From the NCBI RefSeq assembly GCF_054482595.1, contig NZ_CM137008.1: DNA of 64,000 nucleotides. One strand, given 5' to 3'. Position numbers and translations under genes: made by a program. The notes below the pieces were generated by a model. That model was not told the DNA's origin and did not search any database. It saw only the letters and a program-made list of their open reading frames with translations. Positions 12,397 through 41,739 of the stretch are shown here, in pieces (within the stretch, counting starts at the first letter, position 1; the number at the start of each line of letters is the position of its first letter).

Positions 12397-13680
12397 TCAC
12401 CGTTTGTAATCGATGGCTTCTGGCTGCTCCAGATATACGGTGGTTTGTGCCGGTTGTGTGCTGGCGATCACCTTACCGCCACGTACAGAATAACGTACCG
12501 GAACCTGACGGCGCAGCGCATCAAATCCATTTTCAGCCGGCAGGATAATCAGGTTCGCGCTGTTTCCGGCGGCAATGCCGTAATCCTGCAAATTCAACGT
12601 CCTGGCGCTGTGGTGGGTGATTAAATTCAGGCCATCGTTAATCTGCCCATAGCCCATCAGCTGGCAAACATGCAGCCCCATATGCAGCACTTGCAGCATA
12701 TTCGCCGTTCCCAGCGGATACCACGGATCGAAGACATCATCGTGACCAAAGCAGACGTTAATGCCGGACTCCAGCATCTCTTTAACGCGCGTGATGCCGC
12801 GACGTTTTGGATACGTATCGAAACGTCCTTGCAGATGAATATTGACCAGCGGGTTGGCGACAAAGTTAATACCGGACATTTTCAGCAAGCGGAACAGGCG
12901 TGAGGTATACGCCCCGTTATAGGAGTGCATTGCCGTGGTGTGGCTGGCGGTGACTCGCGCGCCCATGCCTTCACGGTGCGCCAGGGCAGCAACGGTTTCG
13001 ACAAAGCGCGACTGCTCGTCATCGATCTCATCACAGTGAACGTCGATGAGACGGTCGTATTTTTGCGCCAGGGCGAAGGTTTTATGCAGCGACTCCACGC
13101 CGTATTCACGGGTAAATTCAAAATGCGGAATCGCCCCCACTACATCTGCCCCTAAGCGTAACGCCTCTTCCAGCAACGCTTCACCGTTGGGATACGACAA
13201 AATCCCTTCCTGAGGGAAGGCGACGATTTGCAGATCAATCCACGGCGCGACTTCCTGCTTCACTTCCAGCATTGCTTTCAGCGCAGTTAGCGTTGCATCC
13301 GAAACATCGACATGGGTACGCACATGCTGAATGCCGTTGGCAATCTGCCATTTCAGCGTTTGCCAGGCGCGTTGTTTCACATCGTCATGGGTTAATAACG
13401 CTTTGCGCTCGGCCCAGCGTTCAATGCCTTCAAACAGCGTGCCGGACTGATTCCAGTTCGGTTGTCCGGCGGTTTGCGTGGTGTCCAGGTGAATATGCGG
13501 CTCCACAAATGGCGGTATAACTAAACCTTGTTCGGCATCCAGGCTGTTTTCAGTTATGGGCATCACGCCGGATTGCGCATCAATGGCGCTGATTTTTCCG
13601 TCCTGCAGATGAATCTGCCACTGCCCCTCTTTGCCTGGTAACCGGGCGTTAATAATTGTTTGTAAAGCGTTATTCGACAC
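12397..13680 (-). CDS. codA: Cytosine deaminase CodA (427 aa, GTG start)
   Basis: [38 protein letters not shown]... amidohydrolase; start overlaps the codB stop. Confidence 0.92.
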
Positions 13681-14929
13681 TGTTAGCCTCCACATGCGTC
13701 ATTGCTGCTGTCGTTTTACGATTCAAAATCGGGTTAAGGATCAGATAGCTCAGCGCGCCACCTAATACCGCGTTGACCGGAACAATTCCCGGTAACCAGT
13801 GGCCTGCAGCAATCCCCAAGGCGACCGCCAGAATCGCCACCCAATTGACACTCATCATACGCGTGGTCGCAAAGTGCTCATAGCGGCGACGGTTCATCAG
13901 ATAGTCGGCAATGATCACGCCACCCACTGGAGGAATAGCTGCCGAAAGGAAGGTCAACCAGCCGACAAAATTGTTATACAGCCATAATGCGCAGACCGTA
14001 CCGATAATACCGTTGATTACCGAAAGGGTTTTGCTCGACATCCCGGTAATGTTGGCGAAACCTAAACCCGACGCATAGAGCGCGTTATCGTTGGTGGTCC
14101 AGATATTTAGCCCCAGCACCACAATCGCAGGCAACAGCAGGCCCTGAGCAATCATCACATCAGAGATATCCGCCAACCCCAGTGCCGCCGCTCCCGCTGC
14201 ACCGAAAATAAACATCAACGAGTTGCCGAGGAAAAAGGCCACCATCGCCACCAGCACCGCCAGTTTGGCATTGCGACCAAACCGGACAAAGTCAGCGGTG
14301 AGCGTACCCGCACTGATAAATGACCCCACAACCAGCGCCAGCGCGACATTGAAATCTAACGGTTGTGCGGGAACGACCGCTTTTAATGCGTCCAGGCCGC
14401 CCATGCCGTTAACAGCCAGCCACACGGAATAACCACCAAGGCAGGCGATAGCCGGAACCGCAATCACCGAAAGAACCGTCAGCGCCGAAATGCCAAAGAA
14501 GACGGTGACGGTCATCAGTAAACCGGAAACGGCAATCAGCAAATTAATATCCAGCCCGGTTGCCTTGCCCACCGGAATGGCAAACATCGCCACACCGACG
14601 CCAAACCAGCCAACCTGGGTGCCGCCCAGCAGCAGTGAAGGCAGCCATGAGCCTTTAACACCAAACGAGAAGCGAGCAAGAAGATGGGTGGTCAGGCCGG
14701 TTTTTGCACCAATGTAACCGAGAAATGAAGTGTAAATACCGAGGAGAAGATTACCGATGAGAACTGCGAGGAAGAAATCATGATAGCTAAGACCGGTTCC
14801 GAGAGTGCCGCCGGTCCACATACTGGCGGAAAAGAAGGTTAATCCCAGCATGACGAACGTCAATGCCAATACCCCTTTCCGCGCCGACTGCGGGACTGGC
14901 CCCTGGCTAAAGTTGTTATCTTGCGACAC
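13670..14929 (-). CDS. codB: Cytosine permease CodB (NCS1 family, 419 aa)
   Basis: [41 protein letters not shown]..., 12-TM transporter directly upstream of codA. Confidence 0.93.
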
Positions 14930-30787: not shown

Positions 30788-31774
30788 TTAATAAAGTGAG
30801 TCGATATTGTCTTTGTTGACCAGTAATACCTTATGGAAACGGATAATTCGCTTATCCATATCTACGTCGGCCTTACCCAGATTCTGCATTTCTAATCCAG
30901 GTTTGATCTCTTCACCCTTCAGCAACGTGCTGGCGACGGCTGCGAGTGCGTAACCTGCAGAGGCCGGATCGTAAGTAATCCCTTCGGTGATATCACCACT
31001 TTTAATCAGTGATGCCGCCTGTGAAGGGATCATCATGCCATAGACTGCGACTTTATTTTTCGCCCGTTTCTCTTTCACCGCACGTCCCGCGCCAATCGGA
31101 CCGTTTGAACCAAAGGAGACAACCGCTTTTAAGTCAGGATAGGTTTTCATCAGGTCCAGTGTGGTACGACGTGAGTCATCCACACTCTCGGCAACCGGCA
31201 TGCGGCGGGTAACTTCATGCATATCCGGGTAATGCTCTTTCTGGTATTTCACCAGCAAGTCAGCCCATAAGTTATGCTGCGGCACGGTCAAACTACCCAC
31301 GTAAATCACATAGCCGCCCTTGCCCCCCATGCGTTTCGCCATATGCTCAACATATTCAGCGGCAAATTTTTCGTTATCAATGATTTCGATATCCCAGTTA
31401 GCACTTGGCTGACCGGGGGATTCGTTGGTCAGAACCACAATTCCGGCATCTCGCGCTTTTTTGAATACCGGTTCCAGCACGTTGGCATCGTTTGGCACGA
31501 TAGTAATTGCATTAACCTTACGGGCGATTAAATCCTCAATAATTTTAACCTGTTGCGGAGCATCAGTACTTGAAGGCCCCACCTGTGACGCATTAACACC
31601 AAAGGCTTTACCCGCCTCAACCACACCTTCGCCCATGCGATTAAACCACGGCATACCATCGACTTTAGAAATATTCACCACGACTTTTTCCGCTGCCTGG
31701 AGCGGCGCAGAAATTAGCGCAGCGCCTAATAACAGCGAAGACACCATATTGATAACAAAACGTTTATTCATCAT
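30788..31774 (-). CDS. Periplasmic sugar-binding protein, LsrB/RbsB-like
   Basis: Signal peptide MMNKRFVINMVSSLLLGAALISAPLQA; C-terminus RIIRFHKVLLVNKDNIDSLY resembles LsrB ...VIFNKDNIDKYDF (recalled from memory). Confidence 0.8.
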   Translation of the reverse strand: MMNKRFVINMVSSLLLGAALISAPLQAAEKVVVNISKVDGMPWFNRMGEGVVEAGKAFGVNASQVGPSSTDAPQQVKIIEDLIARKVNAITIVPNDANVLEPVFKKARDAGIVVLTNESPGQPSANWDIEIIDNEKFAAEYVEHMAKRMGGKGGYVIYVGSLTVPQHNLWADLLVKYQKEHYPDMHEVTRRMPVAESVDDSRRTTLDLMKTYPDLKAVVSFGSNGPIGAGRAVKEKRAKNKVAVYGMMIPSQAASLIKSGDITEGITYDPASAGYALAAVASTLLKGEEIKPGLEMQNLGKADVDMDKRIIRFHKVLLVNKDNIDSLY

Positions 31775-32024: not shown

Positions 32025-32435
32025 CTACACAACGTCAATAAGGGCATATTCTTCAAAGATAACGTCCATTTCTGGTGAATAGCTTCCTTCTGCCTGGAAA
32101 AAACGACGGTGTTCATTACGCCAATATTCAAGACTGAGGTCACCTTCACCTTCCTTACGGGCAAGCTCCGCGGTGACATCAGAAAAGCGCAGTAAATGCA
32201 GGCCAATCACTCTGATAACACATACAGGCTCACCACGGCTATTTTCTACAATCTTATACTCACCAATCATCGGAAATGAGTTGTCTTCAATACATCCTGC
32301 CAGCGAACCACAGGAAGCTGTTTTAACACCAGTCGCAATCAACGTTGCGAGGTGATCGGCCAACGCTGCAGAATCGCCAAAAGTACAAAAGGAAGCATGG
32401 GGATATTTTTGTAAGATTTTTTCTTTTATGGTCAT
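32025..32435 (-). CDS. ASCH-domain protein
   Basis: 136-aa protein with a beta-barrel ASCH-like core; start set at MTIKEKILQKYP. Confidence 0.55.
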   Translation of the reverse strand: MTIKEKILQKYPHASFCTFGDSAALADHLATLIATGVKTASCGSLAGCIEDNSFPMIGEYKIVENSRGEPVCVIRVIGLHLLRFSDVTAELARKEGEGDLSLEYWRNEHRRFFQAEGSYSPEMDVIFEEYALIDVV

Positions 32436-32733
32436 GAGAATATTTTCGCGATTACGGAAAAACAAATCACATCTTAATTACTGTTGGTAACCATCAGCAA
32501 GAGTATCATTGGTTTTTCGATACTGAATCTTTTTTATCCGAAGCAGGTCACATTTATGGCCTGATAAATACCTTTGTTAAAACTCACTTTTGTGTATTTC
32601 TCTCAAATAATCCCCTGGAAATTATGCCGGGAGATTATAAAGTTCAGGATCATTCATTAGCAAACCATTCCCGCCCCACTCCCTGGGGCTTAAATCTCTT
32701 ACTATTCACCGTTGCAGGCGTTTCAAATGCGCA

Positions 32734-34116
32734 TCAACCTGCCACACTCCCCCACACCAGTTGCCCTTTATGGAACGTTGCGGTTCTCGGCGAGATACGC
32801 GCCACCGCCTCGGCGGAACAGGAGGCGTCCACCAGCACAAAGCTGGCGTCATCCTGCGCTTTTGGCCATACACGCTCGCCTTTTTCATTCAGCGGCAATA
32901 CATCGCCAGTGGCTAGAAACAGCGAACGGGAGAGGTTCTGTTCGTTAGGACGAATATAGAGCTGCGCGTAGAGATTGGCTTTTTCCAGCATGTCGCCCAG
33001 ACCATAAGGCGACCAGTGGTCGATAACGCTGTCAGTGCCAGTCATCACTTTTACGCCTTTGTCGTGTAACTGTTTGAGCGGCATATGCAGCGTACCAATC
33101 GGCACCGTCGAGGCGATAGAAATTTGCTGCACCACCATCCGGTTAGCCAGTTCATCTACCTGTTGCTCGTTGAGTGTTGCCAGCGCAAAGGCGTGACTGA
33201 TGGTCAGCTTGCCCTTCAGCTGTGGCGTTTTCTCTACCGTTTCAACCATATAATTGATGGCTGCCACGCCCGACGGAGTGGTTTCGTGCAGGTGAATATC
33301 GACGCCTTTGTCGTAGTCCAGCGCAATCTGGAACATGGTATCGAGGGATTTTTCCATCGCGCCATCGACACTGGTCGGGTCCAGCCCGCCGACGTAATGC
33401 GCCCCCGCCTGCATCGCTTCGCGCATTAAGGGTTCCGATTTCGACAGCAGCAAACCGTGCTGCGGGAAGGCGACGATTTCACACTCGAAGCCCGCCTGAC
33501 GTCGCGCCAGCACCGCCTGCAAATTTTGCAGATTTTTCAGGCCGGAAACCGGTTCGATATTGCAGTGGCTGCGGGCAATGGTGGTGCCTTTCGACTGCAA
33601 TAAATCAATCAGTTTTTCTGCCCGCTCCTGAGTGTACGGTTGCAGCTCCGGCAGCATTTTCTGCTCGAGTTTGATCATGTCCTGGATGGTGGTGCCTGCC
33701 GGGCGATTGAGCGAGCGCCACGGCCCGCCGTAAAAGGTTTTGTCGAGATGAATATGCATGTCGCGGGTGGTGGGCAGCATCAGCTTATCGCCAGCGTCAT
33801 AGTGCGGCAGCGTGGCATCCGGGTGCTGCTTATTCTCGCGCAGCGCGACAATTTTGCCGTTCTGAATCTCCACGGTCTGGCGCGCCGTGCGGGTCTGCAC
33901 CGCCACGCCATTTTCGTAGTCAAATCCAGTTTCCAGCAGCACGTTGTCGAGATAGTAATGCGGGTCAGTGATTTTCATGGTGTTGTTCGCTTCGCAGTTT
34001 GTGGTGCCAGAGACCGCCGCATGGGCGAGCGGCACAGAGGTACCAAACAGCGCGGCGGCGGTGACCATCTTACCGCTCTGGCTCAGAAATTCACGGCGGC
34101 TATTGCTTTCTTTCAT
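32734..34116 (-). CDS. yahJ: Tat-exported amidohydrolase-family deaminase YahJ (460 aa)
   Basis: Twin-arginine signal SRREFLSQSGKMVTAAALFG; metal-dependent amidohydrolase motifs (HIHLD, DIHLHE). Confidence 0.85.
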   Translation of the reverse strand: MKESNSRREFLSQSGKMVTAAALFGTSVPLAHAAVSGTTNCEANNTMKITDPHYYLDNVLLETGFDYENGVAVQTRTARQTVEIQNGKIVALRENKQHPDATLPHYDAGDKLMLPTTRDMHIHLDKTFYGGPWRSLNRPAGTTIQDMIKLEQKMLPELQPYTQERAEKLIDLLQSKGTTIARSHCNIEPVSGLKNLQNLQAVLARRQAGFECEIVAFPQHGLLLSKSEPLMREAMQAGAHYVGGLDPTSVDGAMEKSLDTMFQIALDYDKGVDIHLHETTPSGVAAINYMVETVEKTPQLKGKLTISHAFALATLNEQQVDELANRMVVQQISIASTVPIGTLHMPLKQLHDKGVKVMTGTDSVIDHWSPYGLGDMLEKANLYAQLYIRPNEQNLSRSLFLATGDVLPLNEKGERVWPKAQDDASFVLVDASCSAEAVARISPRTATFHKGQLVWGSVAG

Positions 34117-34125
34117 CTTACGTCC

Positions 34126-35076
34126 TTACGTTTTAATAATATGGGTGCCCGTTTCACCGCGCAGCGCCGCAGGCAGGCATTCCGGCGTGGTGATAATCAC
34201 TTCTTTGCCGCCCTGTTCCAGGAACGTCAGGCTGGCGATGATTTTTGGCAACATGCTGCCAGGCGGAAAATGCCCTTCCTGCATATAGCGGGTCATGGTG
34301 GCAATATCCACGCGATCCAGCGCCTGCTGCTGCGGTTTACCAAAATGAATACACACTTTTTCCACGCCGGTGGTGATCACCAGAATGTCGGCGTGAATTT
34401 CACGGGCCAGCAGCGCGGTAGAGAGATCTTTGTCGATAACCGCGTCCACGCTTTGGTAATCTCCCGCGTCAGTACGCACCACAGGAATTCCGCCGCCGCC
34501 CGCGCCAATCACCACAAAGCCTTGTTGGATCAGCGCCTTAATGGCAGGTGCTTCGACAATACGTTTCGGTTCCGGCGAGGCGACCACGCGGCGATAGCCC
34601 CGTCCGGCATCTTCAACAAAACGCCAGTCAGGGTTTGCCTTTTGTAGTTCGTCACGCTGGCTGTCACTAAAGAATGCGCCGATGGGCTTGGTGGGATGGG
34701 CAAATCCCGGATCGTTTTTATCCACTTCCACCTGAGTCACCACGGTGACGGCTTTTTTCTCGCCGTGACGCGCCAGCCGGTTGTTCAGCGCCTGTTGGAT
34801 CAGATAGCCGATGCCGCCTTGCGTATCCGCCACACAGTTCGCCAGGGGCGTTAAGGGCAGCCCTTCGCGCTCGTGGGCAATCTCCGCGCGGCGTAAATCC
34901 AGCCCGACCTGCGGCCCGTTGCCGTGGGTCAGCACAATGTCGTAATCGGAAGCCAGCATTTCCAGCACCGTATCAGCGACGGCTTTCACCGCCTCCGCCT
35001 GATGCTCAATCGACTGGCTGGCGTTATCTTTGATAATGCTGTTGCCACCAATGGCAACGACCACAAGTTCTTTCAT
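34126..35076 (-). CDS. yahI: Carbamate kinase-like protein YahI (316 aa)
   Basis: Amino-acid kinase fold, VVAIGGNSI, THGNGPQVG motifs of carbamate kinases. Confidence 0.88.
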   Translation of the reverse strand: MKELVVVAIGGNSIIKDNASQSIEHQAEAVKAVADTVLEMLASDYDIVLTHGNGPQVGLDLRRAEIAHEREGLPLTPLANCVADTQGGIGYLIQQALNNRLARHGEKKAVTVVTQVEVDKNDPGFAHPTKPIGAFFSDSQRDELQKANPDWRFVEDAGRGYRRVVASPEPKRIVEAPAIKALIQQGFVVIGAGGGGIPVVRTDAGDYQSVDAVIDKDLSTALLAREIHADILVITTGVEKVCIHFGKPQQQALDRVDIATMTRYMQEGHFPPGSMLPKIIASLTFLEQGGKEVIITTPECLPAALRGETGTHIIKT

Positions 35077-35126
35077 CTTGTTATGTCCGCTACAGAGGGT
35101 GATGGGGTTATGACCAACGCCAGACT

Positions 35127-35484
35127 GCCTGATGCGCTACGCTTATCAGGCCTACAATTCTCGTGCCACTCGTAGGCCGGATAAGGCGTTCACGCCACAT
35201 CCGGCAATGGTGACAAATGCCTGATGCGCTACGCTTATCAGGCCTACAATTCTTGCGCCATTCGTAGGCCGGATAAGGCGTTCACGCCGCATCCGGCAAT
35301 GGTGACAAATGCCTGATGCGCTACGCTTATCAGGCCTACAAATTCTTGCGCCACTTGTAGGCCGGATAAGGCGTTCACGCCGCATCCGGCAATGGTGACA
35401 AATGCCTGATGCGCTACGCTTATCAGGCCTACAGATTCTTGCGCCACTTGTAGGCCGGATAAGGCGTTCACGCCGCATCCGGCA
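35127..35484. repeat. BIME / REP array, about 4 tandem units of about 94 bp
   Basis: gcctgatgcgctacgcttatcaggcctaca ... gccggataaggcgttcacgccgcatccggc repeated at about 35127, 35218, 35312, 35406. Confidence 0.9.
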
Positions 35485-35496
35485 TGAACATGTAGG

Positions 35497-36915
35497 TCAG
35501 ACGCCGTAACGTTCGCACCAGCCAAGAATGGCTTTCTCGAAGCAGGCGAATGGCGGATGCACAATGCCCGCGCCAATCATGCCGACGCCCGCATCTTTAT
35601 GGGCGATGGCGGTGTTGATCACCGGCAGAATGCCGCTGCTACCCACGCGGGTGATGTCGATTGCCGACGGCACGCCCATAAAACCGAGCAGCGGAATGGT
35701 GACGTTGGGGTTTTCGCCAAGGGTGATTTCGCGCATCTGACGGGAGAAATCGATAGCCTCTTCCACCGTGCCGCCCACCAGCGCAACGATTGCAGGCGCG
35801 GTCGCCATGGCAAATCCGCCAATACCGTAGGTTTCGGTGATGGCGCTGTCGCCGATATCCAGCCCCGAATCTTCCGGCTTATAACCAGCAAACATCGGGC
35901 CGATGACCTGCTGCGCTGGGCCGGTAAACCACTGCCCCGGCAGGCCGCTGACCCGCAGGCCGAACTCGACGCCGTTACGCGCCATGGTGGTAACGACGGT
36001 GCTGTATTCGATGCCGTGCGCCGCATCCATCGCCGCTTTACACATCGCCATCCACGTCGGGCCGGAGAAGTAATCGCTACTGGCAACAAACTCAAACACT
36101 TCGCGCTGTTGCGCGACGGAATAGCCCGCCTGGATAATCCCCGGCGTCAGCGCCTGAATCAGCAGCGTCGTCCCGGCGTTATTGCGGTTATGGCACTCAT
36201 CGCCCATATGCAGCGCCTGCGCCAGCATTAAGCGCAGATCGATTTCGCCGATAATTTTCATCGCGTCGCGCAGTATTGGTCCCTGCACATCACGCATCCA
36301 GTTCAGGCGGTCAATCACGCTCTGGTCGTTAGCGCCCATACGCAAAATCTTCGCCATCTGCTCGCTCATGTTGGTATAAGCGATGTTGCCGTAGGTTTTG
36401 TTTTTTACGATGTGCATAAACATCGAGGCCGAGGTAACACCCGCCATCGATCCCACGCAGTCGTGCTCGTGACACGGCGAGAAGGTGATCTCCCCGGAAG
36501 CCGCCAGTTCAGCCGCCTCGTCGAGATCTTTCGCCAGTCCTTCGAACACCAGCGCTCCGGTGACCGCGCCTTTCATCGCGCCGCACATTTTTTCCCAGGT
36601 GATCGGCGGCCCGGCGTGAAGAATGGTTTTCGGCGTCATGCCCGGCACCACGTTAATCGCCTGCTCAAAACCAATCAGCACCGGATGCGACTGGATAATG
36701 CGCTCCAGCGCCTGCTGGTTAGCGGCGGCGATTTTGTCTGCCAGCGGCGAATCGGCAATGTTGTCCAGCGCCTGCACCACCTGCATATTGCCCTGCCCCG
36801 GCGGCGTCCAGTCGAGTTGAGTCACTTCTACATGCTGCTTTTTCAGGTCATCGCTAAACATGGCGATGCCGACGTTAATAACGTTCAATGGTTGGCTAAA
36901 CAGTGACTGGCTCAT
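35497..36915 (-). CDS. yahG: DUF1116-family protein YahG (YlbE paralog)
   Basis: 472 aa; start overlaps yahF stop (ATGA). Confidence 0.8.
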   Translation of the reverse strand: MSQSLFSQPLNVINVGIAMFSDDLKKQHVEVTQLDWTPPGQGNMQVVQALDNIADSPLADKIAAANQQALERIIQSHPVLIGFEQAINVVPGMTPKTILHAGPPITWEKMCGAMKGAVTGALVFEGLAKDLDEAAELAASGEITFSPCHEHDCVGSMAGVTSASMFMHIVKNKTYGNIAYTNMSEQMAKILRMGANDQSVIDRLNWMRDVQGPILRDAMKIIGEIDLRLMLAQALHMGDECHNRNNAGTTLLIQALTPGIIQAGYSVAQQREVFEFVASSDYFSGPTWMAMCKAAMDAAHGIEYSTVVTTMARNGVEFGLRVSGLPGQWFTGPAQQVIGPMFAGYKPEDSGLDIGDSAITETYGIGGFAMATAPAIVALVGGTVEEAIDFSRQMREITLGENPNVTIPLLGFMGVPSAIDITRVGSSGILPVINTAIAHKDAGVGMIGAGIVHPPFACFEKAILGWCERYGV

Positions 36916-38462
36916 CAGGCTTCCTCCCCTTTGCAGATAAATTCACGCGCCAGCAATCCGGTATTGGTGCTGCTGCTCGCCAGAATCACTCCGGCATCAA
37001 GCAGCATCTGGCTTTGTTGTTCTAACGATGGCGTATCAAGATCGGTACCCAGCACATAGGCGAGAATGATCAACTCGCGTCCTTCGGCAGCGGCGATCGC
37101 TTTCGCTTCTTTGATCGCCTCGATGGTGGAGCCGACCGGATCTTCATGCGATCCAAATCCGAGCACAAAATCCATCACGATCACCGCCACTTCTGGATCG
37201 CGCGCCTCTTCGATCAAGCGACTGATGCGGTTGGTGGGGTCAATCATTGGATGCGGCTTGCCGTTGGTGAAGTCGTCATCGCCAAAGTCGAGGAAGGTGT
37301 GTTTGATGCTGCGATTGATATCTTTCAGGCGGAATTCAGGATCGGGCTGGATGTTGCTGTAGACATCGCCGTGTTTTTCCATCACCGCGAACATGGTTTC
37401 GTCACACAGCGTACCGCCGCAGAACAGGCCACGAATGTATTTCTGCTGGGGTTGCAGACGCGCACGCACATCCGCAATCAACGGCTGGTTAAGCGTATGC
37501 AGGTCGAGATTTTCCTGTTTCACGCCGGAGAGCATCACCGCTTTTAGCGCCGCTTCTTTGCTGCCGCGAGCAAACTGTAGCCCCTGCTCGTCAACCGGCG
37601 TTTCGCCACGACCGAGGAAGCAGACCACCACCGGCTTGCGGCAGGCGCGGGCGCGTTCCAGCACTTTACGGGCCACCGCAGGCGCGGGAGGTTTTGAAAT
37701 CAGCGCGATAATTTCAGTTTGCGGATCGTTTTCCAGCATCCCGATGGCGTCGAGCATCATCAGGCCGCCGATTTTCTCGCTCAGGTCGCGCCCGCCGGTG
37801 CCAATCAGTTGTGAAACGCCGCCACCAAATTCATGAATGCGGACGCTCAGCTCCTGGCTGCCGGTGCCGGATGCGCCAACAATACCGATGTTGCCGCGAT
37901 GCACGGCGTTACCAAAACAGAGCGCCGCGCCGTTGATAATCGCCGTGCCACAGTCTGGCCCCATCATCAGCAGCCCTTTTTCGTGGGCCAGTTGCTTGAG
38001 CGCCAGTTCATCTTCAACCGAGACGTTATCGGAAAACAGCATCACGTTGAGATCGTTTTGCAGCGCCTGACGCGCTTCGCGAGCGGCAAACAGACCGTTG
38101 ACCGAAATCACCGCCAGGTTACTTTCCGGGATATGCTTTTTGGCGCTGGCAATAGTGGCGTAACGCGCCTCGTGCGAGCCGCTTTGCGCTTTGCTGTTGA
38201 ACAGTTCTTCAATCTCCACCAGCAACTGCTCGTTGTCCGCCCCCGATTTACCATTGATGACAATCATCAGGTCGCCGTTTTTCGCCTGTTCCAGCTCCGG
38301 CGTGAGCAGTCCTAAATTTTTCAGCACACCTTTGTTCATTTCGGTCGCCATCGCCACAAATGCCTGCTCGACGCCGTCGAGTTTATTTGCACGCGTGGAG
38401 ATAGACATCAGCGAGACAGAATCAAAATAGGTATTCGGTTTAATGACTATTTTAACTGACAT
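36915..38462 (-). CDS. yahF: FdrA-like protein YahF (CoA-ligase / succinyl-CoA synthetase alpha-like fold)
   Basis: 515 aa, CoA-binding Rossmann-like N-terminus and ligase-CoA domains. Confidence 0.8.
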   Translation of the reverse strand: MSVKIVIKPNTYFDSVSLMSISTRANKLDGVEQAFVAMATEMNKGVLKNLGLLTPELEQAKNGDLMIVINGKSGADNEQLLVEIEELFNSKAQSGSHEARYATIASAKKHIPESNLAVISVNGLFAAREARQALQNDLNVMLFSDNVSVEDELALKQLAHEKGLLMMGPDCGTAIINGAALCFGNAVHRGNIGIVGASGTGSQELSVRIHEFGGGVSQLIGTGGRDLSEKIGGLMMLDAIGMLENDPQTEIIALISKPPAPAVARKVLERARACRKPVVVCFLGRGETPVDEQGLQFARGSKEAALKAVMLSGVKQENLDLHTLNQPLIADVRARLQPQQKYIRGLFCGGTLCDETMFAVMEKHGDVYSNIQPDPEFRLKDINRSIKHTFLDFGDDDFTNGKPHPMIDPTNRISRLIEEARDPEVAVIVMDFVLGFGSHEDPVGSTIEAIKEAKAIAAAEGRELIILAYVLGTDLDTPSLEQQSQMLLDAGVILASSSTNTGLLAREFICKGEEA

Positions 38463-39315
38463 AATTCCCTCCGTAGGTTTGGCTCAGCGCACAACCATCG
38501 GCCATGCCATACAGCATGTCGCAGCCGGAACTGGAGCCAATATGTTTAATTTTTTCTATTGCCTGAGTTGAATTCCCAGGGACGCCATAAATAATGTTGT
38601 GAATAAAACGATGAATATTTTCCCGGCAGCGTTGTTGTAATGCGGCTTCCAGCGTTATGGCACTTAATAATGTGGTGTTATTTCTGCCGCGTTGCAGACC
38701 GCGATAAAATTCCTCTTTGTATTTTTCCGCCGGATGCCCGGAAATAAATAAAATAAGTACCAGTCCGGTCAGATAATCATCGGCTGATGGCGTAAGGCCA
38801 ATCCCTAACCCCATCATACTGGCGACCGCTGCGGCGATATTTTGTTTTTCGTTTACTGCCTGAATAACTGCCCGTCGTTTAATATGTAGTTCTTTATTTA
38901 ACGCCTGATAAAACGGATTATCGCCGCGATAATTAAACAGGGTTTCATTTTCCCCCAGGTGCTGATGAATAATGTCGTGCCACTGTTGCCAGGCGATAAG
39001 GTGAAAATTCACAGCGGTCATTTGCAAGGTTGGGGACAGCCAACGCCGACAACGACTCATCTCTATATGAAGATGTTGACCAACCGTAATACCTTGATCG
39101 TCAAACTGAACCTTATCACCATGCCGGAACAGATCATCAAAGTGAGTGAGTGCCAACCGACAACTGTTTGGCGCATTGTCGTACTCTTCACAAAGCAGCG
39201 TCAGCAACTGCTGGCGAGCCGGGAGTGCGATATTTACCGCTCTGGCAAAGACCTGTTCAACCTGTCCTTGCCCCCGCTGCGCCAGAAAATCCGCATCCGC
39301 AGTTAGCGCCCACAC
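38452..39315 (-). CDS. yahE: DUF2877-family protein YahE (YlbF paralog)
   Basis: 287 aa, overlaps yahF start by 11 nt. Confidence 0.75.
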   Translation of the reverse strand: MWALTADADFLAQRGQGQVEQVFARAVNIALPARQQLLTLLCEEYDNAPNSCRLALTHFDDLFRHGDKVQFDDQGITVGQHLHIEMSRCRRWLSPTLQMTAVNFHLIAWQQWHDIIHQHLGENETLFNYRGDNPFYQALNKELHIKRRAVIQAVNEKQNIAAAVASMMGLGIGLTPSADDYLTGLVLILFISGHPAEKYKEEFYRGLQRGRNNTTLLSAITLEAALQQRCRENIHRFIHNIIYGVPGNSTQAIEKIKHIGSSSGCDMLYGMADGCALSQTYGGNYVS

Positions 39316-39354
39316 ACACCGTTTTTCTGGTGTGTTGATTGCAAGCCTCCCGGT

Positions 39355-39960
39355 TTATGCACCTGCGGCAATCAGTAACTGCGCAATCTCTTCAAAGCCC
39401 CGTTCCCGCGCCAGTTCCAGTGGCGTTTTGCCATATTTATCCGTCAGATGCGGGCTGGCACCGTGTTCCAGCAATAACTGCACAATCGCCTGCTGTTTAA
39501 TACCACCATCATTAAGCACAATCGCTTCCAGTAGCGGCGTCCAGCCTACATGGTTGGTCTGGTTAACGTTAATCTCCGTATGCGCCAAAAGCTCTTTTAC
39601 AATACTTAAATGGCCTTTTTCACAGGCAGGCGTCAGGCCGACACCGCCAAAACGGGTTACGCAATTAAGATCGGGTTTAGCCGGTAAAATAATTCGTAGT
39701 AGAGTTAAATCATCGTTCAGACAGCTAATTAAAAAAGGATTTAAACAGGTATGATCTTGCTTATTAATATCCGCTCCGGCATCAATTAATGCCTGAACGC
39801 AAGCATATTGCTGATATAAACTTGCCAGCGTAATTGCCGTTTTCCCCTGACGATCGCAGGTATTAATATCGACACCCAGCGCAAGGCAGGTTTTTACTTT
39901 ATCGATATCACCCTGTTGTGCAGCCAATAAATAGTCGGCAGGTAGATTTTTTATACTCAT
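39355..39960 (-). CDS. yahD: Ankyrin-repeat protein YahD
   Basis: 201 aa with repeated ...G.TPL..A...G motifs typical of ankyrin repeats. Confidence 0.8.
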   Translation of the reverse strand: MSIKNLPADYLLAAQQGDIDKVKTCLALGVDINTCDRQGKTAITLASLYQQYACVQALIDAGADINKQDHTCLNPFLISCLNDDLTLLRIILPAKPDLNCVTRFGGVGLTPACEKGHLSIVKELLAHTEINVNQTNHVGWTPLLEAIVLNDGGIKQQAIVQLLLEHGASPHLTDKYGKTPLELARERGFEEIAQLLIAAGA

Positions 39961-40217
39961 TCACATTCCCCTGGTTTTTGTGGCTGTTTTCGATGAATTG
40001 AGAATAGCAACGATAATCTGATAAAAGAACCCGCTTAAATTTAATTCGCTGTATTTCGCCTTTTTGTTGAATGATGTTCAACAATCTTTTCGCAGTGTGC
40101 GGTAGTGCAATATTTGTTTCTTTGACCCGATACCCTTTCACTCAATCAGGTTTTATTTCTCTATAGTCTGCACATGTAAGAGTAGCTTTCGTCCATGTCT
40201 AACCAGAGGGGAACAAG

Positions 40218-40715
40218 ATGAACGGACTCACGGCAACGGGTGTCACCGTCGGTATTTGTGCAGGGCTTTGGCAGTTAGTGTCTTCACATGTCGGGCTCTC
40301 TCAGGGATGGGAATTATTAGGAACCATTGGCTTCGTCGCCTTTTGCAGTTTTTATGCCGCAGGCGGCGGTAAATCGGGGTTTATCAGAAGTCTGGCGGTT
40401 AATTATTCCGGGATGGTGTGGGCATTTTTCGCCGCGCTGGCTGCCGGTTGGCTGGCCTCTGTAAGTGGACTGTCCGCGTTCTGGGCGAGCGTAATTACTA
40501 CCGTACCCTTCTCGGCGGTAGTGGTCTGGCAAGGGCGTTTCTGGTTACTGTCCTTTATTCCCGGTGGCTTTCTCGGCATGACGCTGTTTTTTGCCAGCGG
40601 GATGAACTGGACGGTGACGTTACTGGGTTTTCTGGCGGGTAACTGCGTGGGGATAATTTCAGAATATGGTGGACAAAAATTAAGCGAAGCGACGACTAAA
40701 CGCGACGGGTATTAA
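40218..40715 (+). CDS. yahC: Inner-membrane protein YahC (DUF1097-like)
   Basis: 165 aa, 4-5 predicted TM helices. Confidence 0.7.
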   Translation: MNGLTATGVTVGICAGLWQLVSSHVGLSQGWELLGTIGFVAFCSFYAAGGGKSGFIRSLAVNYSGMVWAFFAALAAGWLASVSGLSAFWASVITTVPFSAVVVWQGRFWLLSFIPGGFLGMTLFFASGMNWTVTLLGFLAGNCVGIISEYGGQKLSEATTKRDGY

Positions 40716-40806
40716 AAGTTATTCAAAAATGATTATCTATCTTTAACCGATACCTCTACAGTCATAGCTGGAGAAATTCATAGTAGATAATGGCGAGAAT
40801 GGTTTA

Positions 40807-41739
40807 ATGAACTCAATTTTTACCGAAGAGAATCTGTTGGCATTTACTACCGCTGCGCGTTTTGGCAGCTTCAGTAAAGCCGCAGAAGAGTTGGGTTTAA
40901 CCACTTCCGCCATTAGCTACACCATCAAGCGTATGGAGACGGGGCTGGATGTGGTGCTGTTCACTCGCAGTACCCGCAGCATTGAGTTAACGGAGTCCGG
41001 GCGTTATTTTTTCCGCAAAGCTACCGACCTGCTGAATGATTTTCACGCCATCAAACGCAGTATCGATACTATTTCGCAGGGCATAGAAGCACGTGTGCGC
41101 ATTTGTATTAATCAGCTGCTTTATACGCCCAAACACACCGCACGCTTGTTACAGGTGCTGAAAAAGCAGTTTCCTACCTGCCAGATTACCGTCACCACCG
41201 AAGTGTATAACGGCGTCTGGGATGCGATTATTAATAATCAGGCCAATATCGCCATCGGCGCACCCGATACACTACTGGACGGCGGCGGTATTGATTACAC
41301 TGAAATTGGCGCGATTCGCTGGGCTTTTGCTATCGCCCCGGATCACCCGTTAGCCTTTGTGCCGGAACCCATCGCCGAAAGCCAACTGCGTCTCTACCCT
41401 AATATTATGGTGGAGGACACCGCGCATACGATTAATAAAAAAGTGGGCTGGTTGCTGCACGGGCAGGAGTCAATTCTGGTGCCAGATTTCAACACCAAAT
41501 GTCAGTGCCAGATTTTAGGTGAAGGAATTGGTTTTTTGCCGGATTACATGGTCCGTGAGGCGATGACGCAATCCCTGCTGGTTACCCGACAAATCCATAA
41601 TCCGCGCCAGGATTCGCGCATGTTACTGGCGACTCAGCATTCTGCTACGGGTCAGGTGACGCAGTGGATTAAAAAACAATTTGCGCCAAATGGCATATTA
41701 ACGGGGATCTATCAGGATTTACTGCATCGGGAGAATTAA
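40807..41739 (+). CDS. yahB: LysR-family transcriptional regulator YahB
   Basis: N-terminal LysR HTH AARFGSFSKAAEELGLTTSAISYTIKRME. Confidence 0.85.
   Translation: MNSIFTEENLLAFTTAARFGSFSKAAEELGLTTSAISYTIKRMETGLDVVLFTRSTRSIELTESGRYFFRKATDLLNDFHAIKRSIDTISQGIEARVRICINQLLYTPKHTARLLQVLKKQFPTCQITVTTEVYNGVWDAIINNQANIAIGAPDTLLDGGGIDYTEIGAIRWAFAIAPDHPLAFVPEPIAESQLRLYPNIMVEDTAHTINKKVGWLLHGQESILVPDFNTKCQCQILGEGIGFLPDYMVREAMTQSLLVTRQIHNPRQDSRMLLATQHSATGQVTQWIKKQFAPNGILTGIYQDLLHREN

Follow-up and report, generated by a model that had tools for sequence, protein, structure and literature searches.

The yah cluster of Escherichia coli: a candidate catabolic unit with a putative second AllFGH-type carbamoyltransferase, a carbamate kinase and a predicted exported deaminase

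Background

The closest described relative of the genes considered here is the AllFGH-AllK set of the allantoin regulon. AllFGH (FdrA-YlbE-YlbF) was established in 2024 as an oxamic transcarbamylase using purified protein (PMC11326118), and AllK (YbcF) is a catabolic carbamate kinase (PMC11326118, PMC9843812), which bears out the oxamate/carbamoyl-transfer link of the all cluster that an earlier note on the present DNA had mentioned. Full AllFGH activity requires AllH, and K-12 mutants without allF, allG or allFGH yield zero oxamate from allantoin (PMC11326118). Genes resembling allFGHK have also been described in comammox bacteria and ammonia-oxidising archaea, beside biuret/triuret hydrolase genes and bmpA-nupABC (PMC12625717). 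The arginine and agmatine deiminase pathways combine a deiminase with an OTC-family transcarbamylase, a carbamate kinase and an antiporter.

No published functional assignment for the yah genes was found in the literature. YahJ has been listed among predicted Tat substrates, and deletion of yahJ from ExPEC mildly lowered fitness in a mouse model, the competitive index being 0.70 (PMC7549933). The y-ome paper reports that REP23 sites fill yahH. Here we describe the yah set as a separate orthologue group and a mobile module, together with the loss of a permease in the E. coli lineage and a LysR-type dyad, all of which are new to this analysis.

Results

The window, that is the whole 64-kb stretch of DNA analysed, is E. 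coli DNA that is 100% identical to strain XH990. Its minus strand carries yahD, yahE, yahF, yahG, yahI and yahJ, all six of them co-directional (Table 1). Gene junctions within the cluster are tight or overlapping, yahF sharing 1 nt with yahG and 11 nt with yahE, and no terminator-like site was found on the minus strand within it. The gene content and common direction described in the earlier note were confirmed, and all of its domain assignments were matched. Its range of 34126-39960 does span yahD to yahI, but yahJ falls just outside and was therefore left out of that range although the note described it. The divergent yahC, which lies upstream of yahB, together with yahB and the conserved candidate operator, belongs to the yah unit as well; these were absent from the earlier note. 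The region is found at a coverage of at least 80% in 4600 of 5426 complete E. coli genomes, and about 15% of complete genomes are without most of it.

Table 1 Positions of the yah features within the window
Feature	Coordinates	Strand	Evidence
yahJ: predicted Tat-exported CodA/AtzC-type metal-dependent deaminase/amidohydrolase, 460 aa	32734..34116	-	PRK06846, Amidohydro_3, Amidohydro_1
YahJ twin-arginine (Tat) signal peptide, residues 1-33, SRREFLS ... AHA	34018..34116	-	read from sequence
yahI: carbamate kinase family protein, 316 aa	34126..35076	-	PRK12352
BIME array between yahI and yahG, 420 bp	35077..35496 (units located 35126-35526)	.	paired REPs
yahG: AllG-type (DUF1116) putative subunit, 472 aa	35497..36915	-	Pfam AllG
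yahF: AllF/FdrA-type putative subunit, 515 aa	36915..38462	-	NF004760, CoA_binding, Ligase_CoA
yahE: AllH-type (DUF2877) putative subunit, 287 aa	38452..39315	-	Pfam AllH
yahD: ankyrin-repeat protein, first operon gene, 201 aa	39355..39960	-	ankyrin-repeat models
candidate operator, perfect dyad of T-N11-A type	40064..40084	.	conserved arms
yahC: DUF1097 small polytopic membrane protein, 165 aa	40218..40715	+	RefSeq annotation
yahB: LysR-type regulator, best family matches AllS and PunR	40807..41739	+	NCBIfam

Profile searches matched YahE to Pfam AllH/PF11392 (1.9e-28), YahF to NCBIfam FdrA NF004760 (493 bits, cut-off 433) with additional CoA_binding and Ligase_CoA domains, and YahG to Pfam AllG/PF06545 (1.4e-88). 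Among solved structures, FdrA (PDB 3dmy) matches YahF at 3e-83 and the E. faecalis protein 3clq matches YahG at 2e-194. YahI scores 650 bits against the carbamate kinase model PRK12352 (cut-off 266) and 346.7 against the arcC equivalog model, slightly below its cut-off of 358, while YahD matches ankyrin-repeat models. Compared with the K-12 proteins, identities are 39% for YahF/AllF (E 7e-103), 45% for YahG/AllG (E 1e-119), 25% for YahE/AllH (E 1e-10) and 38% for YahI/AllK (E 7e-58), and these four are thus paralogues of the all set, as the earlier note had recognised. YahG residues 11-53 are the counterpart of the AllF C-end. YahG shares 73-79% identity with orthologues in Firmicutes and beta/alpha-proteobacteria, against 45% with AllG; judged from these comparisons, the yah set is a separate, strongly conserved orthologue group rather than a recent duplicate of the all genes.

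YahJ scores 713 bits against NCBIfam PRK06846, and its nearest solved relatives are the AtzC-like 6nbo (8e-43), AtzC and CodA (about 1e-17). The identity between YahJ and CodA is only 26%; YahJ retains the metal-binding and catalytic residues of CodA (HxH, Q156, H214, E217, H246 and D313), with Ser in place of D314. The Tat signal can be read straight from the sequence (MKESNSRREFLSQSGKMVTAAALFGTSVPLAHA), and its RR-x-F-[LI] core is present in every YahJ orthologue from the 80 Enterobacterales and Aeromonas loci that have a YahJ-like ORF. A YahJ relative in Priestia is flanked by a Xan_ur_permease gene on one side and by its own TatA-TatC on the other, and in Acinetobacter a cytoplasmic relative adjoins isochorismatase, amidase, GGT-like and Bmp-ABC genes. 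The earlier note had regarded the periplasmic location of YahJ as an oddity, a view that does not stand: exported YahJ-type enzymes recur elsewhere beside nucleobase permeases, and the location therefore appears to be a conserved design.

YahB reaches 268 bits against NCBIfam AllS (cut-off 372) and 239 bits against PunR. On the ColV plasmid, as in 80 of 80 loci, its gene is divergent from yahD. Upstream of yahD lies the perfect dyad TTGTTGAA-N5-TTCAACAA, a pattern that is unique within the window, where 0.00 chance matches are expected. Most related loci, the plasmid copy among them, have the dyad about 118-135 nt upstream of yahD with conserved arms and a variable spacer, which makes it a candidate operator for YahB.

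The BIME array reported between yahG and yahI in the earlier note is present, and consists of four units in tandem, each about 93 nt long and containing a pair of inverted REPs; these score as Rfam naRNA4/REP, and yahH is a spurious ORF within it. The array occupies the position at which most Enterobacterales carry a gene for a 515-aa AzgA-like permease, named xanthine/AGZA-family permease in the sources. In the Escherichia/Kluyvera/Raoultella lineage the cluster has no permease and yahC is present instead, a gene found only in this permease-less lineage. Permease-less relatives have yahG-yahI gaps of 79-315 bp that hold palindromic elements of their own. The absence of the permease makes the E. 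coli cluster an incomplete form of a wider module; gene content and substitution rates indicate that this lineage lost its dedicated permease, gained yahC and remains under selection. A role of yahC as a substitute transporter is speculative.

The wider module is mobile, and comprises a regulator and ankyrin-AllH-AllF-AllG-permease-carbamate kinase genes, to which a deaminase is added in some cases. About 80 species share the order yahD-E-F-G-(permease)-yahI-yahJ and have tight or overlapping gene junctions, which together with the lack of an internal terminator-like site supports the earlier treatment of yahDEFG-yahIJ as one unit including the deaminase. Buttiauxella and about 60 other Enterobacterales have YahB / D-E-F-G-permease-I-J. 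Brevibacillus and Paenibacillus have PucR / Ank-AllH-AllF-AllG-NCS1-CK-GuaD-like deaminase, in which the NCS1 protein is allantoin-permease-like (435 bits) and the deaminase matches 1wkq (1.5e-31). Janthinobacterium, Aeromonas and Azospirillum have Ank-H-F-G, the 515-aa permease and CK, the ankyrin protein of Azospirillum being fused to TPR repeats. ColV plasmids carry LysR / Ank-H-F-G-permease-CK with IS1/Tn3 on the flanks, and the APEC O1 tkt1 island has isochorismatase-yahE-yahF-yahG-CK. The module begins with yahD in Brevibacillus, Janthinobacterium and Aeromonas, on the ColV plasmid and in 80 of 80 Enterobacterales loci. The deaminase is missing from the complete modules of Aeromonas, Janthinobacterium and the ColV plasmid, and yahE is cleanly absent from Enterobacter-type clusters; no other gene of the set evolves faster, and some lineages can dispense with it. 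Values of dN/dS range from 0.01 to 0.28 for all eight genes, permease-less lineages included (yahD 0.07-0.13, yahC 0.04-0.12, yahB 0.01-0.03). All cluster genes remain under purifying selection.

Discussion

The catabolic route for an uncharacterised carbamoyl-containing nitrogen compound put forward in the earlier note remains the best reading of these genes. The cluster combines a diverged form of an oxalurate-splitting enzyme, a carbamate kinase, an exported deaminase and, in relatives, a nucleobase-type permease, so the operon probably extracts ATP and ammonia from a purine-like nitrogen compound. On the strength of gene content and synteny, we lean towards yahDEFG-(BIME)-yahIJ and the divergent yahC-yahB forming one catabolic unit. 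In this unit, a second AllFGH-type carbamoyltransferase, distinct from the ATCase/OTCase kind, would be made up of YahE, YahF and YahG, probably with YahD as an additional subunit or a scaffold, and YahI would be the catabolic carbamate kinase coupled to it. YahJ would act as a deaminase of the cytosine-deaminase/AtzC type exported through Tat, and YahB as the LysR regulator at the conserved dyad. In the proposed sequence, YahJ would deaminate an amino- or guanidino-substituted, nucleobase-like compound in the periplasm, and the oxo or ureido product would be taken up, in most relatives by the AzgA-like permease. YahDEFG and phosphate would then split a cytoplasmic N-acylureide into an amide and carbamoyl phosphate, from which, with ADP, YahI would form ATP, NH3 and CO2. 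Oxalurate or a close analogue would be the leading candidate substrate; to oxalurate itself we give about one third.

Several observations strain this scheme. The yah module was found to have no ring-opening enzyme, and if YahJ yields a heterocyclic product, its conversion into a linear acylureide lacks an explanation; the lack of a dedicated permease in E. coli also counts against it. Several complete modules do without the deaminase, and YahJ may therefore be an add-on that feeds a different step, or act on the product. The AllFGH subunit model may not transfer exactly, since AllH is needed for full activity there and Enterobacter-type clusters have dispensed with yahE. The failure of K-12 allF, allG and allFGH mutants to form oxamate means either that the yah genes were silent under the conditions used or that their products do not act on oxalurate.

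That same result weighs against a plain isozyme function, in which YahEFG would serve as a redundant oxamate transcarbamylase and YahI as a redundant carbamate kinase, backing up the use of endogenous allantoin-pathway oxalurate, with YahJ and YahD functionally unrelated neighbours: no oxamate appeared despite intact yahDEFG. The paralogy of all four proteins to AllFGHK, the similarity of YahB to AllS above all and the purine-catabolism themes of the Firmicute form (PucR-type regulators, allantoin-permease-like NCS1, GuaD-like deaminase) would fit such a back-up, as would the origin of 3clq in E. faecalis, which PMC11326118 cites as a species with classical OXTCase activity; the E. faecalis V583 locus, however, looks degraded and has no neighbouring carbamate kinase. 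A back-up enzyme is nevertheless unlikely given a regulator, operator, permease and exported deaminase of its own, syntenic over about 80 species, and given identities of 25-45% to the all proteins versus 73-79% within the YahG group across phyla, which argue for a distinct, constrained function. The E. coli cluster might instead be a cryptic remnant, non-working since the permease loss and persisting by drift or for a moonlighting role. The missing permease with a BIME array in its gap, the split yahF of the E. albertii type strain, the genomes that are without most of the region and a literature in which we found no reported phenotype or expression condition are all compatible with decay. 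Against this, dN/dS is 0.02-0.28 for every gene between E. coli and the permease-less Kluyvera, Raoultella, C. amalonaticus and Pseudocitrobacter, most complete genomes retain the region, the dyad and Tat signal are conserved and the ExPEC yahJ mutant is mildly impaired; a remnant is thus quite unlikely.

Two further readings concern the chemistry. The direction could be anabolic or modifying, YahI making carbamoyl phosphate and YahDEFG transferring its carbamoyl group to an amide or heterocycle, either in detoxification or to make a ureide, before YahJ processes the product extracellularly. The AllFGH reaction is indeed freely reversible and was assayed in the carbamoylating direction (PMC11326118), and some carbamate-kinase-like enzymes are anabolic (PMC6022934). 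We regard this as very unlikely, the context being catabolic throughout (nucleobase-type importers, deaminases, PucR/AllS-like regulators), with no linked biosynthetic genes and with YahI in a family named carbamate kinase and paired like AllK. RefSeq names YahF acyl-CoA synthetase FdrA, and its CoA_binding and Ligase_CoA domains and its resemblance to succinyl-CoA synthetase alpha in profile and structure matches could suggest that YahF activates a carboxylate with CoA, with YahG and YahE accessory and YahI an unrelated enzyme of the amino-acid-kinase fold. This can hardly be credited: the homologue AllF forms part of a transcarbamylase that has been purified, neither YahF nor AllF has the SucD phosphohistidine motif GHAGA in the alignment, and a carbamate kinase travels with the AllF-type gene in every module examined except the degraded E. 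faecalis locus. The preferred reading, a catabolic carbamoyltransferase route, makes the yah module a sound lead, open to testing, towards names for E. coli genes without an assigned function.

Among known systems, AllFGH-AllK (Kim & Kim 2022, 2024) is the nearest, with adjacent, co-oriented AllF/FdrA, AllG/DUF1116 and AllH/DUF2877 genes and a carbamate kinase, matched in yah also by an AllS-like LysR-type regulator. The yah set differs in its order (H-F-G-K versus F-G-H-K), in the position of a short F/G-boundary segment on the opposite gene, and in the addition of an ankyrin first gene, a predicted Tat-exported deaminase and, in most species, a nucleobase-type permease. It has no allantoin genes nearby, constitutes an orthologue group of its own that has a separate operator, and is no replacement for allFGH in K-12 on allantoin. 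YahJ shares the fold family and the metal-binding and catalytic residues of CodA and AtzC, but carries a Tat signal, is predicted to be periplasmic and has the Ser substitution. The comammox and archaeal clusters likewise place an AllFGH-type set and carbamate kinase with N-rich ureide hydrolases and nucleoside/nucleobase-type transporters; their hydrolases, however, are of the isochorismatase family, they have neither an ankyrin protein nor an exported CodA-type deaminase, and their substrates are only predicted. The E. coli ygeW-ygeX-ygeY-hyuA-yqeA cluster of anaerobic purine/urate degradation is a third one in this species to pair a carbamoyltransferase (YgeW) with a carbamate kinase paralogue (YqeA) in the breakdown of N-heterocycles, but YgeW is an OTC/ATC-fold enzyme and the cluster has the ring-opening (hydantoinase-type) and downstream enzymes that are both missing from yah. 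By analogy, the proposed yah route would resemble the arginine and agmatine deiminase pathways, in which imino or amino nitrogen is removed to give a ureide, phosphate splits the ureide to carbamoyl phosphate, ATP is formed and a transporter is supplied. In the yah route, an unrelated enzyme of AllFGH type would serve as the transcarbamylase, the predicted exported deaminase is a nucleobase deaminase of CodA/AtzC or GuaD type, the module transporter is NCS1 or AzgA-like, and the proposed substrate is neither an amino acid nor a polyamine; the systems would be alike in working logic, while their families differ.

Gene content of the yah cluster

The 8.5-kb yah region is 100% identical to that of E. 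coli XH990 and others. Profile searches against Pfam and NCBIfam upheld the domains that the earlier note had assigned to yahD-E-F-G-I-J (ankyrin repeats, DUF2877, FdrA-like, DUF1116, carbamate kinase and amidohydrolase), and all six genes lie on the minus strand and so are co-directional, as it had described. The range it had proposed, 34126-39960, does enclose yahD to yahI, but it ends at yahI and leaves yahJ, which it also named, just outside. Family models and pairwise comparison identified all three subunits of the AllF (FdrA), AllG (PF06545) and AllH (PF11392) families in the set. YahI scored above the cut-off of the carbamate kinase model PRK12352 and, at 346.7 bits, just below that of the arcC equivalog TIGR00746 (358.25); it is therefore a member of the carbamate kinase family and not an ArcC equivalog.

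Positions of the yah genes and of other features of the window
Feature	Position	Strand	Assignment
yahB	40807-41739	plus	divergent from yahD
yahC	40218-40715	plus	divergent from yahD
Dyad TTGTTGAA-N5-TTCAACAA	40064-40084		perfect; LysR-type T-N11-A box
yahD	39355-39960	minus	ankyrin-repeat models
yahE	38452-39315	minus	Pfam AllH (formerly DUF2877), 1.9e-28
yahF	36915-38462	minus	NCBIfam FdrA, 493 bits (cut-off 433); CoA_binding and Ligase_CoA
yahG	35497-36915	minus	Pfam AllG (formerly DUF1116), 1.4e-88
YahG residues 11-53	36757-36885	minus	segment shared with the AllF C-terminus
ORF annotated yahH	35152-35478		annotated 'hypothetical protein'
yahI	34126-35076	minus	carbamate kinase PRK12352, 650 bits (cut-off 266)
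yahJ	32734-34116	minus	amidohydrolase PRK06846, 713 bits
yahJ to yahK segment	27300-32700		strain-variable
ASCH-domain protein	32025-32465		within the yahJ to yahK segment
ABC substrate-binding protein	30788-31774		sugar type; within the yahJ to yahK segment
codA	12397-13695		reference for the YahJ alignment

The yahE and yahF frames overlap by 11 nt, those of yahF and yahG by 1 nt, and 9 nt separate yahI from yahJ. Between yahG and yahI, the 420-bp spacing is filled by the BIME array recognized in the earlier note, an intergenic run of four tandem units of about 93 nt built from paired, inverted REP palindromes, with yahI beyond it. Based on the gene arrangement and on the tight junctions of relatives, the subunit genes are adjacent to, and probably co-transcribed with, the gene of a putative catabolic carbamate kinase in the manner of AllFGH. 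A terminator scan found no minus-strand terminator-like site inside the cluster, and the promoter/terminator scan gave no signal above chance. The Rfam model naRNA4 scored the array at 76-78 bits, over its gathering threshold, simply because that family is itself REP-derived. A permissive Rfam scan of 32-41 kb returned REP/naRNA4 matches only, with no riboswitch or other ncRNA upstream. The ORF annotated yahH lies entirely within the array and is probably not a gene.

The segment between yahJ and yahK encodes an ASCH-domain protein, a sugar-type ABC substrate-binding protein, an ATPase and two permeases. It is missing from K-12, complete in 2211 of 5426 genomes, and was not found adjoining the yah cluster in other genera. 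The ASCH gene and the ABC transporter were considered as parts of the unit and rejected, being strain-variable and absent from the clusters of relatives.

Relationship to AllFGH and AllK

Comparison with the K-12 all locus bore out the paralogy claimed in the earlier note: YahF matches AllF at 39% identity (E 7e-103), YahG matches AllG at 45% (E 1e-119), YahE matches AllH at 25% (E 1e-10) and YahI matches AllK at 38% (E 7e-58). The link of the all cluster to oxamate and carbamoyl transfer, which that note had mentioned, agrees with the literature, as purified AllF-AllG-AllH is the oxamic transcarbamylase that interconverts oxalurate plus phosphate and oxamate plus carbamoyl phosphate, and AllK is a catabolic carbamate kinase (PMC11326118, PMC9843812). 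Neither of these two reports mentions the yah paralogues. K-12 strains lacking allF, allG or allFGH form no oxamate from allantoin with the yah genes intact, and allFG without allH restores oxamate formation to only about 7% (PMC11326118). The best family matches of YahB are AllS (268 bits, cut-off 372) and PunR, and in this the regulators of the two sets run parallel as well.

The yah set does not sit in the allantoin context (allD/allC/allE) that marks AllF/G/H orthologues. YahG shares 73-79% identity with proteins of Brevibacillus, Paenibacillus, Psychrobacillus, Janthinobacterium and Azospirillum and about 72% with the E. faecalis protein of PDB 3clq, whereas E. coli AllG is far more distant at 45%. 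We place the yah set outside the AllF/G/H orthologue group because identity to the All proteins is 25-45%, compared with 73-79% between YahG-group proteins of different phyla, the neighbourhood contains no all genes, and the cluster has a LysR regulator and a putative operator of its own.

In an alignment with E. coli SucD, the GHAGA phosphohistidine loop is absent from both YahF and AllF; the aligned residues are K-Y-I-R-G-L in YahF-group proteins and G-F-I-C-G-L in AllF. The name 'acyl-CoA synthetase' is therefore unlikely to fit the chemistry of YahF. The structure model of YahE (pLDDT 92) pairs a beta domain at the N-terminus with a helical bundle at the C-terminus. yahE is missing from otherwise intact clusters of Enterobacter, Leclercia, Lelliottia, Silvania and Huaxiibacter (L043-L070) and of Aeromonas cavernicola (L092). 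In these Enterobacter-type clusters a tblastn search for yahE was empty within 10 kb, and the YahD-YahF gap measures 15-110 bp (277 bp in A. cavernicola). In Zophobihabitans (L072:7536-9989), YahE and YahF are fused in one 817-aa ORF. These absences and the fusion, together with the residual 7% of allFG without allH, suggest that the AllH-type protein is an accessory that can be dispensed with and that makes contact with the F subunit.

A segment of about 45 residues, with the motif VINVGI..F..L....W.P..GN, forms the C-terminal end of AllF (residues 512-554) and the N-terminal end of YahG (local alignment score 67; shuffled sequences give 23 +/- 4). From one paralogous set to the other, the boundary of the F and G genes has moved. 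The same segment is a separate 77-aa ORF in a contig resembling E. faecalis (L012:9751-9984), and these three arrangements mark the F-G junction as a structural unit.

YahJ and its relatives

The N-terminus of YahJ, MKESNSRREFLSQSGKMVTAAALFGTSVPLAHA, is a textbook twin-arginine signal. The predicted signal (SRREFLS ... AALFGTSVPLAHA-A) has the S/T-R-R-x-F-L-K motif, hydrophobic stretch and AxA site of Tat substrates, and the RR core is retained in all YahJ orthologues examined, in keeping with the Tat export described in the earlier note. Aligned with CodA, which is encoded in the same window, YahJ keeps H61, H63, Q156, H214, E217, H246 and D313 and has Ser in place of D314. Its HxH, His and Asp metal ligands and its catalytic Glu, His and Gln place it in the CodA/AtzC subgroup, and AtzC-type enzymes and CodA are its closest solved relatives. 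The family is small, with 160 clusters at E <=1e-30 in a library-wide search.

Several relatives of YahJ occur in other settings. A Priestia relative (L096:7374-11438; 51% identity) carries a signal peptide; its gene is flanked by a divergent Xan_ur_permease gene on one side and by a TatA-TatC pair of its own on the other, an arrangement suggestive of a dedicated system for exporting a nucleobase-type deaminase out of the cell. An Acinetobacter relative (L098:1-10233; 46% identity) has no signal peptide and adjoins isochorismatase-family, amidase, GGT-like (HpxW family) and Bmp-ABC transporter genes, a set reminiscent of biuret/triuret/oxamate-type ureide catabolism. On a metagenome contig (L100:8135-10347), a YahD-like ankyrin protein (39% identity, E 7e-44) with a lipoprotein-like N-terminus is encoded divergently from a YahJ-like amidohydrolase with an R-K variant Tat motif, and no AllF/G/H genes were found within 9 kb of the pair. 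This pairing suggests that the ankyrin protein may have a link to the deaminase besides that to the transcarbamylase.

A recurring module and its permease

In Brevibacillus and Paenibacillus, a PucR-type regulator gene adjoins the order ankyrin-AllH-AllF-AllG-NCS1 permease-carbamate kinase-small CDA-fold deaminase. The best match of the Firmicute NCS1 permease is an allantoin permease (435 bits, under the cut-off), and the nearest match of the deaminase is the guanine deaminase of B. subtilis (1.5e-31). Janthinobacterium and Aeromonas have ankyrin-AllH-AllF-AllG-515-aa membrane protein-carbamate kinase with a LysR gene; Azospirillum has the same 515-aa protein and an ankyrin-TPR fusion, followed by H-F-G-kinase; Buttiauxella has YahB facing D-E-F-G-515-aa protein-YahI-YahJ. 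The 515-aa protein is 65-90% identical across phyla. It had no Pfam or NCBIfam match, and a PDB sequence search with the permease gave noise only; its assignment as a permease follows the names given by several sources (xanthine or AGZA-family permease). The CodA/AtzC- and GuaD-type deaminases, AzgA-like and NCS1 permeases, and AllS/PunR-like LysR and PucR regulators all belong to nucleobase/purine catabolism.

A scan of Enterobacterales, using one genome per species, found 475 species with a YahG relative, and the closest 80 loci were tabulated. Type A clusters, with the order yahB / yahD-E-F-G-permease-yahI-yahJ and no yahC, occur in the Citrobacter freundii complex, Enterobacter, Leclercia, Lelliottia, Buttiauxella, Serratia, Providencia, Proteus, Trabulsiella, Yokenella, Atlantibacter and Aeromonas. 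Type B clusters, with the order yahB-yahC / yahD-E-F-G-short gap-yahI-yahJ and no permease, occur in Escherichia, Pseudocitrobacter, Kluyvera, C. amalonaticus, Raoultella and Klebsiella spallanzanii. The occurrence of yahC exactly mirrors the absence of the permease in the 80 loci and, as type B clusters are each other's closest relatives, the switch was probably one evolutionary event. The type B yahG-yahI gap ranges from 79 to 420 bp and holds palindromic elements specific to each lineage. The BIME array was considered as the cause of permease loss and rejected: the permease is equally missing from Kluyvera, Raoultella and C. amalonaticus, whose short gaps contain other palindromes, so that its loss is older than the REP/BIME expansion of Escherichia.

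The permease-less version is not decaying, since all eight genes show dN/dS values of 0.01-0.28 when E. coli is compared with five other genera (minimum in yahG and yahB, maximum in yahE). Of 5426 complete E. coli genomes, 4600 carry the 8.5-kb region at >=80% coverage. Between Pseudocitrobacter (L016, L017) and window 32734-41739, synonymous divergence is 0.2-0.3 for yahF-G-I-J and 1.3-2.3 for yahB-C-D-E, a recombination mosaic within the cluster that indicates recent intergeneric exchange of its downstream half. In E. albertii NBRC 107761 (L015:5616-7169), yahF is broken into two ORFs and is likely a pseudogene in that strain, and the gap after yahG holds a duplicated yahG 3'-end fragment.

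The permease gene itself occurs in 142 of 5426 E. coli genomes, with 106 of 152 placements on plasmids. These genomes carry complete, IS1/Tn3-flanked, permease-containing yah-like modules on ColV and other plasmids and on some chromosomes. In pAPEC-O2-211A-ColV (89102-96218 in the record) the order is LysR followed by ankyrin-DUF2877-FdrA-DUF1116-permease-carbamate kinase, flanked by IS1 and Tn3, with no deaminase gene. The tkt1 island of APEC O1 carries an additional paralogous set with an isochorismatase-family gene (PMC3349570). An E. coli strain with a ColV-type copy may thus combine three or four sets of the AllFGH type (all, yah, plasmid copy and tkt1 island).

A predicted operator

The degenerate pattern of the dyad upstream of yahD occurs once in the 64-kb window, against 0.00 expected matches. 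Its arms are kept and its spacer varies in most related loci, including those of Aeromonas and the ColV plasmid, where it lies about 118-135 nt upstream of yahD. The dyad is a phylogenetic footprint of an operator, to which YahB would bind. In E. coli, yahC lies between the dyad and yahB in the direction of yahB and is so placed for co-regulation.

Proposed pathway and alternatives

Homology, synteny, selection, signal peptide and dyad are observed; we infer the complex, the reaction it would catalyse, the sequence of steps and the substrate. The unit would be a YahB-controlled catabolic module in which the exported deaminase acts on a nucleobase-like compound with an amino or guanidino substituent, the product is imported, YahDEFG and phosphate cleave an N-acylureide to an amide and carbamoyl phosphate, and YahI converts the latter to ATP, NH3 and CO2. 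We lean, modestly, towards this general scheme of exported deaminase, uptake, phosphorolysis and YahI. Its weak points are that the module has no ring-opening enzyme, that some complete modules lack the deaminase, and that YahE is variably present.

Within this scheme, oxalurate itself may be the ureide, a possibility to be taken seriously without being favored. The purine-catabolism flavor of the Firmicute clusters, the YahG-type protein of E. faecalis and the ColV-plasmid copies in avian strains speak for it; the lack of oxamate in the all mutants (PMC11326118) and the long divergence of two sets under separate regulators speak against it. E. faecalis, a species with classical OXTCase activity (PMC11326118) whose strain V583 supplied the YahG-type protein of PDB 3clq, was considered as proof that YahEFG acts on oxalurate and rejected. 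The V583-like locus proves little because it is degraded, with AllG split, no carbamate kinase or ankyrin gene nearby, and fragments in many genomes. A bolder form of the phosphorolytic scheme, which we put forward tentatively and regard as rather doubtful, makes the yah-type module a hitherto unrecognised, horizontally mobile, ATP-yielding pathway for an N-rich heterocycle or acyl-guanidine other than allantoin/oxalurate (candidates being an oxidised-guanine fragment, an ammelide/azacytosine-like azine or parabanate-related compounds), with a nucleobase-type deaminase that is either exported or cytoplasmic, a permease of a nucleobase family, a four-component transcarbamylase that includes the ankyrin subunit, and uptake rewired via YahC in the E. 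coli lineage.

Four rival explanations were weighed. The set could be a redundant isozyme with unrelated neighbours, which is unlikely given the conserved synteny with permease, deaminase and operator and the outcome of the allFGH deletion. The low dN/dS makes it improbable that the E. coli cluster is a cryptic remnant. Anabolic carbamoylation is a very remote prospect in a context that is catabolic throughout, and we give scarcely any credence to a true acyl-CoA synthetase pathway in view of the AllF precedent and the missing phosphohistidine motif.

Significance and comparison with known systems

In the literature searched for the yah names, DUF1116/DUF2877, OXTCase and YahJ/Tat, the cluster occurs in gene lists, is given no function and is the subject of no functional study; papers that mention yahB, yahC or yahD contain no regulation data. 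A yahJ deletion mutant has a mild virulence phenotype (PMC7549933), a Tat-substrate list includes yahJ, and the uncharacterised clusters of a 2024 y-ome survey include one made up of yahC, E, G, H, I and J. Eight adjacent K-12 genes (yahB to yahJ) that are still in the y-ome are tied here to the AllFGH family. Screens in K-12 may have been silent because the permease is missing in Escherichia, complete copies reside on ColV plasmids of avian/extraintestinal strains, and the deaminase is exported; lacking the permease, K-12 may also be a poor host for a phenotype. Citrobacter, Enterobacter and plasmid-bearing APEC strains would be more suitable hosts. If the substrate does differ from oxalurate, the AllFGH family would represent a general class of enzymes that split ureides by phosphorolysis and conserve energy from N-rich waste in gut, soil and nitrifier communities.

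The proposed logic is that of the arginine/agmatine deiminase pathways, but those use a transcarbamylase of the ATCase/OTCase fold, which the yah module lacks, having AllFGH-type candidates instead; the likeness is functional only. With AllFGHK the paralogy was already visible in databases (Pfam names AllG and AllH). To the AllFGHK kind the yah module adds an ankyrin protein as partner, a permease of its own, a deaminase that is exported, separate regulation by another regulator, and clear mobility.
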